Shown piece after piece: positions 25,376 through 64,000 of a DNA stretch of 64,000 bases (position 1 is its first letter; each line of letters begins with the position of its first letter). This DNA is from Octopus vulgaris (Eukaryota), in NCBI GenBank assembly GCA_951406725.2, contig OX597818.1, positions 144,398,001 through 144,462,000 on the forward strand. Direction: 5' to 3'. The position numbers were made by a program, and so were the translations under genes. Under the pieces are notes generated by a model. That model was not told the origin of the DNA and searched no databases. It saw only the letters and a program-made list of their open reading frames with translations.

Positions 25376-26373
25376 TCATCATCATCATCATCGTTTAGCG
25401 TCCGTTTTCCATGCTAGCATGGGTTGGACGGTTCAACTGGGGTCTGTGAAGCTGGAAGGCTTCATCAGGCCTAGTCAGATCTGGCAGTGTTTCTACGGCT
25501 GGATGCCCTTCCTAACGCCAACCACTCCATGAGTGTAGTGGGTGCTTTTTACATGCCACCTGCACAGGTGCCAGACAGAGCTGGCAAACGGCCACGAACG
25601 GATGGTGCTTTTTATGTGCCACTGGCACGGGGGCCAGACGAGGCTGGCAACGGACACGAACGGATGGTGCTTTTTACGTGCCACCGGCACGAGGCCAGTC
25701 GGGGTGCGCTGGCCACAGTCACGAACGGATGGTTCTCTTACATGCCACCGGCACTGGTAACACATCTGCAATTTCCATTGATCGATTTCGATTCTGATCC
25801 TCACTTGCCTCAACACGTCTTCACAAGTAGAGTTTTGTGTCCCAAGAAGGGAAGGTATGCATACGTAGGCTGGCTCCATCCCATGTAGAAGGCCACGGGT
25901 TATGGTCTCACTTGTCCTGCCGGGTCTTCTCGCGCACAGCACACTTCCAGAGGTCTCGGTCTCTAGTCATTTCCTCAGTGAGACCTAAAGTTCGAAGGTT
26001 GTGCTTCACCACCTTGTCCCAGGTTTTCCTGGGTCTGCCTCTTGCACAGGTTCCCTCAACCGCTAGGGTGTGGCACTTTTTCACAACTATCTTCATCCAT
26101 TCTCGCCACATGCCCATACCAGCGCAAATGTCTCTCTTGCACACCGCAACTGATGCTTCTTAGGTCCAGCTTTTCTCTCAAGGTACTTACACTCTGCCGA
26201 ATATGAGTACTGACATTACACATCCATCGGAGCATACTGGCTTCATTTCTTGCGAGCTTACACATATCCTCAGCAGTCACGGCCCATGTTTCACTGCCAT
26301 GTAGCATGGCTGTTCGTACACACGCATCATACAGTCTGCCTTTTACTCTGTGCGAGAGGCCTTTTGTCACCAG
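25376..26373 (-). mobile_element. 5'-truncated RTE-clade LINE (ORF2 C-terminus, 3' UTR, (GAT)n tail)
   Basis: ORFs 26056..26391 and 25908..26144 (MLHGSETWAV, LRWYGHVARM, RGRPRKTWD) separated by a frameshift; 3' UTR with ~55-bp subrepeats. Confidence 0.9.
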
Positions 26374-47089: not shown

Positions 47090-47460
47090 TATTCTTTTAT
47101 ATGTTTCAGTCATTTGAATGTGGCCATGCTGGAGCACTGCCTTTAGTTGAACAAATCAACCCCAGGGCTTATTCTTTGTAAGCTTGGTACTTTTTCTATT
47201 GGTCTCTTTTGCTGAACCGCTAAGTTATGGGGACATAAACACACCAACATCGGTTGTCAAACAATGGTGGAGGGACACACAAATACATACATTTATACTT
47301 AAATACTACGAGCTTCTTTCAATTTCCATCTACCAAATCCACTCACAAGGCTTTGGTTGGTCCAAGGCTATAGCAGAAAACACTTGTCCAAGGTCCATGC
47401 TGTGGGACTGAACCTGGAACCATGTGGTTGGGAAGCAAGCTACCACCTTACCACACAGCC
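47090..47460 (-). mobile_element. tRNA-derived SINE, family A
   Basis: Collinear with 3002-3410. Confidence 0.8.
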
Positions 47461-47485
47461 ATATATACATACACACATGGGAGCA

Positions 47486-47564
47486 GCTGTTTTATCGAAA
47501 GCATATATTGTTGTTAAATGCTCAAAATACGAGAGTAGAAAAACAGCCAACAACTGATGAAGGG
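47486..47564 (+). ncRNA. Candidate rearranged hammerhead ribozyme, degenerate copy
   Basis: CATAT-A-TTGTTG (47502-47513), CTC-AAAA-TACG (47521-47531), CAACAA-CTGATGA-AGGG (47548-47564); outer helix GCTGTTTT/AAAACAGC. Confidence 0.55.
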
Positions 47565-47699
47565 TCGTTCTTTATCTTGTTTTCCATTTGTGTCTTTTGT
47601 TGTTTGAAAAAATAGTTCCTCTTCCATGTACTCGTACTTCGTATTTCTTTGTTGTACACGTTTCGTGGCATCCTGTGCCCACATATGCATATATATATA

Positions 47700-48030
47700 T
47701 AATAATTTAATAAATAAAAATATATGCATACATACATACATATATGTACGTACCTACATCTACATGTATATATACATGCATATATATATATATATATGAG
47801 TACAGGACACCACAAACAGACGTAGAACTCAACGAGAAACAAAAACATAAAAACAAACATGGAAACGGACTTTTTTTTAACAACGAAAAAACAGAGTACA
47901 AGACAAACAATACAAGGAATATTCCCCTTCATCAGCTGTCCCTGGTTCGACTCCATGCGTGTTTCGAAGTTAAGGACAGAACACGACCCGTCGAACCAGT
48001 CCTTCCTGCAAAAGAATTAAATTAAATTCC
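47700..48030 (-). mobile_element. Dispersed repeat carrying the hammerhead-like motif (probably a Penelope-type pLTR/3' end)
   Basis: Near-identical copy at 53437-53671; a related divergent element sits tail-to-tail at 47478-47700 (+). The Penelope assignment is inferred from the hammerhead association. Confidence 0.55.
47924..47999 (-). ncRNA. Candidate rearranged (non-circularly permuted) hammerhead ribozyme, intact core
   Basis: Minus strand reads CTGGTTCGAC GGGT CGTGT-T-CTGTCC TTAA CTTC-GAAA-CACG CATGGA GTCGAACCAG GGACAG-CTGATGA-A-GGGG. Confidence 0.68.
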
Positions 48031-49069
48031 TTTGCAGAGGGGTAAAAAAAAAAATATTTTTTTCTTTCCTTGTTTTTATATCAGGACCTTTGACCTTTTG
48101 TCATATATAAATAATCGTTATTATCACTGTTTTTCACATCCACATTTCCATGGGTCAGATGGAATTCTGTCAAGGTGGATTTTGTACAACCAGATGTCCT
48201 TCATGTCATCAACACTCCACTTCCAAGTAAAGTTGATTTTTTCCTATAACCAGACATGTTCTCATAGAAGATTGGGGACACAGTCTATGCAAGCATAGAT
48301 TGGACAATTCGACAGAACCCAACTGAGTTGGCAGACCAAATCTTGCTCCAATATCTCAGCTTTAACATGTTTTCTATAGCTGGTTTCCCCTCCTAATGGG
48401 ACCCACTTTACAGAATGTACTGGGTAATTTTTTTATGACATCAGCACTGTTGTGGTCACTTTGTAACTCACAAGACTAACAAGACCCCATGACTGAGAGG
48501 GAAAATAGGAAAAAGAATATTGATTTTATGCACAGTTTTCAGAAAGTGAGCTAAAGTATAATAGGAGAAACAGGTTTAATGTTGTGAGAGGGTGGAGAAA
48601 CTGATCGAGGCTGTACTAAGAAATGGATTAGTAGAATATAAATAGAAATTAGTGTTATTAGGGTATGAGTTAATGAAAGAGTAGGGTGGATTGAATAGAG
48701 GGGTATACTTACATTTAGAAACACACACACATGCATGCAAGCATGCACGCATGCACATACGCACACACACACAGATATACAGACTCTACTTTCAAATATC
48801 TGATGAAATGGACGTGTCCAACAAGCTCACTAATTAAGTCATATGGAGCTGAATCAAACTGTAATTAAATACAAGTGGCTCCAACCAAAGTGTTGAGTGC
48901 TTCGTTGTTTCATTTACTCACTTATATACAAATAAATAATATATTTATCTATTCCTGTGCACAGTCTGTGTGTGCGTGCGTGAGCATTCAAGTGTGTCTC
49001 TAAACACTTGACTGCGAAGAATTAAGTATGGACAAGAAGACAAAACAGAATACTTCACATGAAAGGTTG

Positions 49070-51995: not shown

Positions 51996-53262
51996 TCATC
52001 ATCATCATCATCATCATCATTTAACGTCCGCTTTCCATGCTAGCATGGGTTGGACGGTTCAACTGGGGTCTGGGGAGCCCGAAAGCTGCACCAGTCCAGT
52101 CAGATCTGGCAGTGTTTCTACAGCTGGATGCCCTTCCTAACGCCAACCACTCCGAGAGTGTAGTGGGTGATTTTATGTGCCACCGACACAGGTGCCAGAC
52201 GAGGCTGGCAGACGGCCACGCTCGGATGGTGTTTTTATGTGCCACCGACACAGGTGCCAGATGAGGCTGGCAAACGGCCACGATCGGATGGTGTTTGTTA
52301 CGTGCCCACAGCACGGAGGCCAGTCGATGCGGTACTGGCTACGGCCACGTTCGGATGGTTTTCTTGTGTGCCACGTGCACCGGCACTGGTACCACAAAGA
52401 TACAAATTCCATTGATGTTCATCTATTTTGATTTGTTTTGATTTGATTTGATTTTCACTTGCCTCAACAGGTCTTCACAAGTGTCACAAGAAGGAAGGTA
52501 TGCACAGGTGGACTGACTACGTCCCAGGTAGGGGCCACAGGTTATGGCCTGACTAGTCTTGCCGGGTCTTCGGATGGTGTTTTTATGTGCCACCGACACA
52601 GGTGCCAGATGAGGCTGGCGAACGGCCACGATCGGATGGTGTTTGTTACGTGCCCACAGCACGGAGGCCAGTCGGTGCAGTACTGGCTACGGCCACGTTC
52701 GGATGGTTTTCTTGTGTGCCACTGGCACTGGTACCACAAGATACAATTCCATTAATGTTCATCTATTTTGATTTGTTTTGATTTGATTTGATTTGATTTG
52801 TTTTGATTTCATTTTGATTTTCACTTGCCTCAACAGGCCTTCACAAGTATCACAAGGAGGAAGGTATGCACAGGTGGACTGACTAGTCTTGCCGGGTCTT
52901 CGGAAGGTGTTTTTATGTGCCACCGACACAGGTGCCAGATGAGGCTGGCGAACGGCCATGATCGGATGGTGTTTGTTACGTGCCCACAGCACGGAGGCCG
53001 GTCGATGCGGAACTGGCTACGGCCACGTTCGGATGGTTCTCTTGTGTGCCACCGGCACTGGTACCACAAAGATACAGATTCCATTGATGTTCATCTATTT
53101 TGATTTGTTTTGATTTTGATTTTCACTTGCCTCAACAGGTCTTCACAAGTGTCACAAGAAGGAAGGTATGCACAGGTGGACTGACTACGTCCCAGGTAGG
53201 GGCCATGGGTTATGGCCTGACTAGTCTTGCCGGGTCTTCGGATGGTGTTTTTATGTGCCACG
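51996..53262 (-). mobile_element. RTE LINE 3' end with a tandemly triplicated ~330-350-bp 3' UTR block
   Basis: (CAT)n tail at 51996-52020; blocks at about 52223-52571, 52572-52901 and 52902-53240, each ending (+ strand) in ctagtcttgccgggtcttc. Confidence 0.88.
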
Positions 53263-53352: not shown

Positions 53353-53390
<38 letters not shown>

Positions 53391-53436
53391 TACTTGGAGA
53401 AAAGAAAGGAAATGAAACGACGCGAGGGCGCTCAGT

Positions 53437-53671
53437 CATACAATAATTTAATAAATAAAATATATGCATACATACATACATATATGTACGTACCTACATC
53501 TACATGTATATATATACATGCATATATATATATGAGTACAGGACACCACAAATAGACGTAGAACTCAACAAGAAACGAAAACATAAAAACAAACATGGAA
53601 ATGGACTTTTTTTTAACAATGAAAGAACAGAGTACAAGACAAACAATACAAGGAATATTCCCCTTCATCAG
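53437..53671 (-). mobile_element. Second copy of the 47700-48030 repeat, 5'-truncated at CTGATGA
   Basis: Collinear with 47700-47935. Confidence 0.8.
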
Positions 53672-63088: not shown

Positions 63089-63143
<55 letters not shown>

Positions 63144-63144
63144 T

Positions 63145-64000
63145 TTTGGTTGTAAATCCTTCTTTAATTTAGGATGCCTGAGTTCGTAGATGTTGAGTTG
63201 TAGGGCACGTTGAAAGCATATGTCAATTAGTGAAGGTGGGTAGTTCCTGGTGATGAGCGTATCCTTTAGTTCATGTAATCCTGGGTCCCTGGTGCTTGCA
63301 TTAGAAACTATAGTACATATCCTTTTTGCTAGGTTGAAGGGTATATTCATTCTGGTGTGTCTGGGGTGGCATGAGTTGAATGGCAGATATTGCTTGGAGT
63401 CCGTGGGTTTATAGTATATACCTGTTTCTATTACGTTGTTAGATTTCTTGATGAGGATGTCAAGGAAGGGAAGTTATTGATGGCTATATTCCATTGTGAA
63501 TTGAATGTTTACATCAAGTCCATTTATAAGCGCTTGAAATTCTTTAAGTCTCTATATTTTCATGCCAAAGAATAAAACAGTCATCCAGGTATCTCTTCCA
63601 GTTATTTTCTATGTAGAGGGAGAATGGGCTACCCTATTTTTCTGGAACCTTATGATAAAGACTAATTTCTAGATATCCCACGACTAGGTTAGCAAATGAG
63701 GGGGCCATTCTTGTACCCATTGCAGTCTCCGATTTTTGTCGGTAGAAGTTGTCTTTGAAGACAAAGTAGTTATTCTCCAAGATAAATTTTAACCCTTCTA
63801 TCACAAATTCTTTTTTGATGCGATGTGGGAGTTCATTGGTGTAATTCTTTAACCAGAATTGAATTGCCTCTATTCCTAGGTTGTAGGGGATATTGGAATA
63901 CAGGTTGACTACATCGAAGGGTACTAGTAGGGTGATTTTGTTTATTGTTTCAGGAAGGTGATTGAGCATATCCAGGTCATCCCTTATGTAGCTTTTGACA
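63145..64000 (-). mobile_element. Penelope-like retroelement reverse transcriptase (frameshifted; continues beyond the window)
   Basis: FDVVNLYSNIP, YRQKSETAMGTRMAPSFANL, WKRYLDDCF, LPFLDILI, YYKPTDSKQYLPFNSCHP, ITRNYP. Confidence 0.92.

Follow-up and report, generated by a model that had tools for sequence, protein, structure and literature searches.

A predicted SGC hammerhead ribozyme in a putative Penelope-like repeat of the Octopus vulgaris genome

A short segment of the window (the whole 64,000-nucleotide stretch of Octopus vulgaris DNA analysed here) is, with good probability, a mutated copy of a predicted hammerhead ribozyme of the SGC type, carried by a high-copy repeat that lacks open reading frames (ORFs) and is likely a non-autonomous Penelope-like element (PLE), and the RNA of this family probably cleaves itself in cells. 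As read from sequence, what is new is a predicted SGC hammerhead in an animal retroelement, its different fourth helix and a genomic trace of the predicted cleavage. Covarying non-circular permutations of the hammerhead have been known from environmental RNA of unknown hosts, and one can now be placed in a defined animal genome and element. Its thousands of copies and its subfamily tree offer a natural compensatory series for structural work, and make the origin of the motif testable. The odds lean slightly towards a fuller claim, in which a non-circularly permuted ribozyme is seen for the first time in a cellular genome. On this claim the SGC hammerhead is active, its architecture of five helices with a 5' splint is new, it evolved within a Penelope-type retroelement of an animal and diversified into more than a dozen subfamilies, and the 5' ends of the copies record its cleavage. 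If so, retroelements scored as hammerhead-free may carry scrambled ones that standard descriptors miss. The features of the window are collected in Table 1.

Table 1. Repeat copies, predicted ribozymes and their structural parts in the window
Feature	Position	Strand	Basis
Family-A copy, 5'-truncated, of the ~750-bp non-coding repeat; 3' end is the element's (AT)n tract	47479..47746	+	blastn against copy L016
Family-A SGC ribozyme	47487-47565	+	hammerhead blocks in the order cleavage site, GAAA, CUGAnGA
Outer helix P0, 5' strand CTGTTTT (partner 47540-47546)	47487..47493	+	segment check; family alignment
Block S: helix III 3' strand and helix I 3' strand, with predicted cut after A47507 between them	47502..47513	+	alignments
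Helix III, C(A)TAT / ATACG	47502-06 / 47527-31	+	letters verified
Helix I, TTGTTG / CAACAA	47508-13 / 47548-53	+	letters verified
Block G: helix II 3' strand GCUC, GAAA (broken by A47524), helix III 5' strand	47520..47531	+	
P0 3' strand AAAACAG, then unpaired C47547 ahead of helix I	47540..47546	+	
Block C: helix I 5' strand, CUGAUGA (47554-60), extra A47561, helix II 5' strand GGGU	47548..47565	+	
AGGG after CUGAUGA	47561-64	+	letters verified
Tentative fifth helix P5, with 5' flank GGGAGC (47479-47484)	47567..47572	+	predicted fold; weak covariation
Family-B copy, tail to tail with the family-A copy	47697..48051	-	sequence comparison
Family-B SGC ribozyme, looks intact; predicted cut after U47980 (GUU)	47924..47999	-	
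Third copy, family B; begins at CUGAUGA, has 3' tail repeat	53354..53671	-	

The window copies and their host repeat

The segments named in the first-pass annotation were found where it had placed them, and the partner motif lies at 47924-47999 on the minus strand. The family-A and family-B copies of the window are identical in 147 of 211 aligned columns, and on this comparison they are homologous subfamilies whose origins are not independent. The hammerhead core (CUGAnGA, GAAA, and NUH with H not G) is incomplete in the family-A copy of the window because of A47524, and without core G12 this copy is likely dead, as loss of G12 is expected from established hammerhead biochemistry to cause inactivity. 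A G had been predicted here and at 47503, and among 56 other family-A copies it is indeed present in 39 of the 45 that cover 47524 and in 35 of the 46 that cover 47503. The accompanying proposal of decay at CpG sites fits family A, with CpG transitions at 68/692 (9.8%) against 30/1516 (2.0%) elsewhere (29 copies), and 5 of the 10 differences of the window copy are, as aligned, CpG transitions; in family B the figures are 20/637 (3.1%) against 36/1968 (1.8%), which is not significant (p=0.058). Two finer details had been read into the pair of window copies. The outer helix was said to abut helix I directly, which fails, as the G47486-C47547 pair is a private mutation (47486 is A in 43/43 copies). 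A UUAA after helix I was said to be shared, and UUA is, while the second A is private, position 47970 being C in 29/29 family-B copies.

Long copies define a unit of ~750 bp with no ORF. From 5' to 3' it has a short 5' segment ending in a donor-like CAA/GTAAGT (in both family A and family B), a pyrimidine-rich stretch, an acceptor-like site and the ribozyme, followed by a 3' part of ~130 nt and an (AT)n tract, after which the 5' segment often recurs as a tail. Among 58 loci, this tail lies downstream in 9, upstream in 9 and on both sides in 3, and 8 have an inverted neighbour. Copies are mostly dispersed and 5'-truncated, and the repeat shows 5' truncation, partial tandems, repeated tails and inverted copies, the traits described for Penelope-like elements in the accessible text of bioRxiv 2021.04.23.441226. 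The repeat is thus likely a non-autonomous Penelope-like retroelement, a class assignment drawn from its anatomy, since no element fetched uses the unit as its pLTR. For the donor-like and acceptor-like sites, one guess at the junction gave 0 spliced copies, and no splice joint occurred in the contigs of four runs presumed to be RNA; these contigs cover the ribozyme region, with expression, ends and strand not readable from them and one run labelled as another organism.

The genome has RT-GIY-YIG elements with 781-aa frames. In a search for an autonomous partner (PF01541, and tblastn with four PLE ORFs across the fetched loci), 30 GIY-YIG loci and 10 longer stretches were examined, and no ORF among them had the unit as its pLTR; there were nearby RT/EN fragments in mixed orientation and one unit nested in an RT ORF (L404). 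Naiads have a preference for (TA)n and are described as devoid of hammerheads (bioRxiv 2021.04.23.441226, accessible text), and a possible link to them was considered for this reason; no Naiad ORF was identified.

Several further sequences are recorded here in their own right. A Penelope-type reverse transcriptase that is no longer intact, and shares 59-71% identity with the 781-aa family, occupies 63138-63999 (-) and runs past the window (L407). A young two-ORF RT-GIY-YIG family (L121-L125) has a CxxxxCxxC linker, an intron-like 5' region and many open copies of 781 aa, and a crude scan of its terminal repeat found no hammerhead. A junction seen once (L077:1127, also L408) brings an SGC unit, cut short at CAG-CUGAGGA, directly against an RT-endonuclease fragment in inverted orientation; a template switch between helper and passenger RNA may have produced it. 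In L351, a short segment from the acceptor to P0 is tandemly triplicated just upstream of the ribozyme, and the window holds related, GC-richer tandem arrays at 25541-25754 and 52166-53261, with units of 62 bp and 330 bp.

Covariation and architecture of the motif

The 2.8-Gb genome (about 30 large contigs) was searched with the core pattern YCGAAAYRCRN{14,26}CTGANGANGG, which matched 2245+2216 = 4,461 times, against 2+2 = 4 for the reversed pattern used as control, a difference that chance does not account for. A structure descriptor (helix I at least 4, helix III at least 4 and helix II at least 3 bp) was passed by 47 of the first 100 genomic matches, many of the failures being copies truncated within the motif, against 0 of 141 scorable microbial or viral matches to a similar pattern. 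The metagenome and viral pattern matches (121 + 22 loci) were accordingly treated as chance. First-look searches gave 2813 candidates for family A and 2913 for family B, and the matches listed for family A included 40 further places. The core was imposed by the pattern in the 4,461-match set, and was not imposed in the family-A and family-B first looks, the family-J search or the 3'-flank search. Families A, B and J and all 13 group majorities drawn from the tree have the complete core, with H17 being A, C or U and never G, and N7 being U or A, among the group majorities. On the sequences, the motif spans about 14 subfamilies of the repeat.

Two alignments were used to examine the pairing. The first (A1) held 45 of 51 copies flagged as full and the two window copies, six having been dropped for deletions, a false flag or duplication; 87.3% of its cells paired, against 77.5% when shuffled and at most 53.4% when slid. 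The second (A2) held 55 of 65 copies and the two window copies (57 rows), ten truncated, deleted, duplicate or very divergent copies having been dropped; in helices I-III, pairing reached 94.3% of cells, where shuffling gave 85.8% and sliding no more than 56.6%, and double changes occupied 96 cells compared with 27.7 after shuffling. Significance at the level of cells is not free of relatedness among the copies, and the relatedness-robust measures gave no excess in A2 (8 pairs with a double change against 6.9 shuffled, 127/500; 18 further pair types against 19.8, 490/500) and likewise none in A1. Among the majorities of the 13 groups, which were drawn by hand, some from 1-3 copies, with one gap shifted in the family-A rows, paired cells numbered 64/65 in helix III, 72/76 in helix I, 108/128 in P0 and 39/39 in helix II, and extra Watson-Crick types numbered 3, 6, 7 and 0, respectively. 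A fourteenth family (J, 25 loci), obtained from a DNA search and with its core intact, has helix III as CUCAU/AUGAG and P0 as CUGUCU/AGACAG, giving two new compensations in helix III and one in P0. Selection on the fold, suggested at first for at least two subfamilies, is supported by these comparisons across about 14. Compensation had been claimed for every helix, and it holds for I, III and the outer helix; for helix II, whose strands the first-pass annotation did not list, it was overstated. This helix is conserved, 3-4 bp long and GU-rich (G-C, G-U, G-U or G-C, and a variable fourth pair), and it shows a one-sided change and a wobble swap, with no clean compensation.

Along the RNA, block S (helix III 3' strand, UH, helix I 3' strand) is followed by block G (helix II 3' strand, GAAA, helix III 5' strand) and then by block C (helix I 5' strand, CUGAUGA, an extra A, helix II 5' strand), so that helices I, II and III flank the core. 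As predicted from sequence, this order is a non-circular permutation of the hammerhead, of the type SGC in the accessible text of PMC10085705, and corresponds to no circular permutation. The strand that precedes helix I has its partner in the 5' flank, and the resulting helix, P0, encloses helix III; the family-A form of P0 is CUGUUUU/AAAACAG, and a single unpaired C separates it from helix I. No interaction helix was found between this strand and the 3' flank of helix II, the strand covarying with the 5' flank, and a direct 3'-flank helix as in the published SGC was rejected, since only GU-rich runs with no consistent register were seen.

The fifth helix, P5, is kept as tentative because its covariation is weak: 84% of cells paired against 82.6% shuffled (30/500), and the covariation score was no higher than in the shuffle. 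Among the majorities of the 13 groups, 89 of 104 cells pair. P5 appears in the predicted folds of 3/3 intact family-A copies and of the family-J copy, and a competing UGCUC/GAGUA hairpin across block G is also predicted in intact family-A and family-J copies. Nested folding cannot show a pseudoknot, and gave z of -0.46 and -1.22 for the two window copies. In family B, the four helix-I-proximal bases of P0 (window 47996-47999, -) vary in 25/116 cells, about ten times the variability of the flanks (56/3277), while the span from S to G varies in 6/841; the variants at these bases are common to several copies, and the pattern fits competition with an extended helix I.

We propose that the loop of a hairpin built from P0 and helix III would present the 3' strands of helices I and II, and that block C would dock on this hairpin as a double pseudoknot. 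In the modelled fold, the 5' flank may splint helices I and II together, through P0 and the weak P5, in place of the direct interaction of the SGC. Cutting after NUH would leave an RNA beginning at helix I, which a borrowed Penelope-type reverse transcriptase would copy, dropping off in the last 30 nt.

5' ends of the copies and competing readings

Copies are 5'-truncated, and their 5' ends were placed relative to the predicted cut (+1 being the first base past it). Among the core-pattern matches, 27/100 begin at 0..+15, against 24/493 in upstream 16-nt windows; this sample is blind to 5' ends farther downstream, a bias that anchoring on the 3' flank removes. With such anchoring, family B gave 6/26 against 14/231 (p=0.009, one copy rescored by hand), and family A gave no significant cluster of 5' ends (2/24 against 11/261, p=0.30). 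A larger sample consisted of the first 100 of 2,717 matches to the 3'-flank motif of B-like families. Ends fall there at 0/93 for +32..+47, 12/93 for +16..+31, 19/81 for 0..+15 and 0/62 for -32..-1, so that 31 of 100 copies begin 1-31 nt past the predicted cut. Although 20 of these 100 copies overlap the core-pattern sample, the 78 newly fetched loci alone gave 11/61 against 0/50 (p=0.0009, hand tally). We regard a template ending at +1 as the best explanation of this edge, which suggests that RNA of the family likely cleaves itself in cells. Such mapping of 5' edges is reusable on other families as an indirect sign of cleavage of the transposing RNA. Because 62 of the 100 copies (~60%) read through the site, cleavage would be incomplete, or undone when the RNA is re-ligated or circularised, and uncleaved, re-ligated or circular templates would also serve.

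Three other readings have to be weighed. The strongest of them, though unlikely, accepts that the fold is real and selected and denies cleavage of the monomer, taking it as a structure that the reverse transcriptase binds or stops at, with the 5' ends clustered by stalling or by (TA)n microhomology. The weakness of helix II would suit it, as would the read-through copies, the low in vitro activity of metazoan PLE hammerheads (PMC4209133, accessible text) and the microsatellites that adjoin about 21 of the 31 clustered junctions (judged by eye). A polymerase moving from 3' to 5' would, however, meet the helices at +32..+47, where no ends lie, and should stall on entering them and not once they are unwound; yet the ends cease abruptly at +1. 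A TA-richer stretch near -50 attracts only 3/59 to 3/62 ends per window, and H17 being never G among the group majorities also speaks against this reading.

It is still less probable that transcription starts at the 5' edge, or that a protein nuclease produces it, with the hammerhead-like core a relic kept by descent. The tree shows that the copies share ancestry, and genomic copies alone do not separate a start site from a cleavage site, but the edge matches a site predicted from structure alone (an inverted junction in L485 begins at +1), and compensatory changes in helices I, III and P0 arose repeatedly between subfamilies. An equally improbable reading, in which blocks of different molecules or of successive tandem units would assemble into a hammerhead of ordinary circular order, with no pseudoknotted monomer, recalls the PLE minimal hammerheads, thought to act as dimers (PMC4209133, accessible text), and could draw on the 7/58 loci with a second core on the same strand, but P0 and helix III fold in cis in the predicted folds of several monomers, the span from H17 to G12 is 13-16 nt, near the 13 nt counted in the accessible alignments of validated monomeric SGC ribozymes, and a circular C-G-S order would take three units. 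A self-cleaving SGC monomer thus remains our preferred reading.

Relation to known hammerheads and retroelements

Published SGC ribozymes (HRIMA-1 and the SGC variants of PMC10085705) share with the octopus motif the S-G-C order and a length of about 80 nt; in both, few nucleotides (often UUA or UCA) link helix I to helix II, CUGAnGA is followed by an additional nucleotide, and a fourth helix begins just before helix I. They differ in pairing this fourth helix with the 3' flank, whereas in the octopus motif it pairs with the 5' flank and encloses helix III, in a helix II of 5 bp against 3-4 GU-rich pairs, and in an extra U against an extra A. The published rearranged hammerheads derive from assembled metatranscriptomes, bar one weak bacterial GCS candidate (PMC10085705). 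RefSeq 85 was searched in that work with descriptors that require CUGAUGAG or CUGAUGAUG and allow the III-to-I linker no more than 15 nt, and the octopus motif fails them because it has CUGAnGAAG and, in the window copies, a linker of 16 nt.

PLE minimal hammerheads in pLTRs (PMC4209133) resemble the octopus motif in an extra nucleotide between 9 and 10.1, a G10.1-C11.1 pair, many covarying families per genome, a host element with partial tandems, tails and inversions, and a ribozyme adjoining a putative intron end. They are of type I (C-G-S) with little or no helix III, whereas in the octopus motif helix III is a full 5 bp long and the blocks follow a non-circular order. Metazoan non-LTR retrozymes (PMC7229834; bioRxiv 10.64898/2026.07.22.740005) are likewise non-coding, hammerhead-bearing and likely mobilised by PLEs, with tandem units of ~170-400 nt, type I ribozymes and circular RNAs shown; the octopus unit differs from them in being ~750 bp long, mostly dispersed and 5'-truncated, with a ribozyme that is not of type I, and is not counted as a retrozyme. 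Circularisation after cleavage is reported for metazoan retrozyme RNAs (PMC7229834) and proposed for PLEs (PMC4209133). In an anole PLE, hammerhead cleavage was unnecessary for insertion in vitro, and the accessible text reports no RNA-seq reads ending at the hammerhead site (PMC11167929).

No match at the gathering score was returned by Rfam in the window, and no hammerhead family was among the 38 matches at E<=10 in 47300-48200. A report of a genomic SGC hammerhead was not found in the literature covered, which left most subscription papers and the repeat databases outside its scope, so that an earlier description is possible; the accessible texts of bioRxiv 10.64898/2026.07.22.740005, PMC13725137 and PMC8967140 do not mention one. 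A separate repeat (L405:5810-5850, -, and other loci; 7 occurrences in the fetched loci) carries an ordinary type I minimal hammerhead, CUGAnGA-A-GAGC..GCUC-GAAAC-GUU, whose extra A and GCUC-GAAA junction are common to family A, and which may hint at where the permuted form came from.
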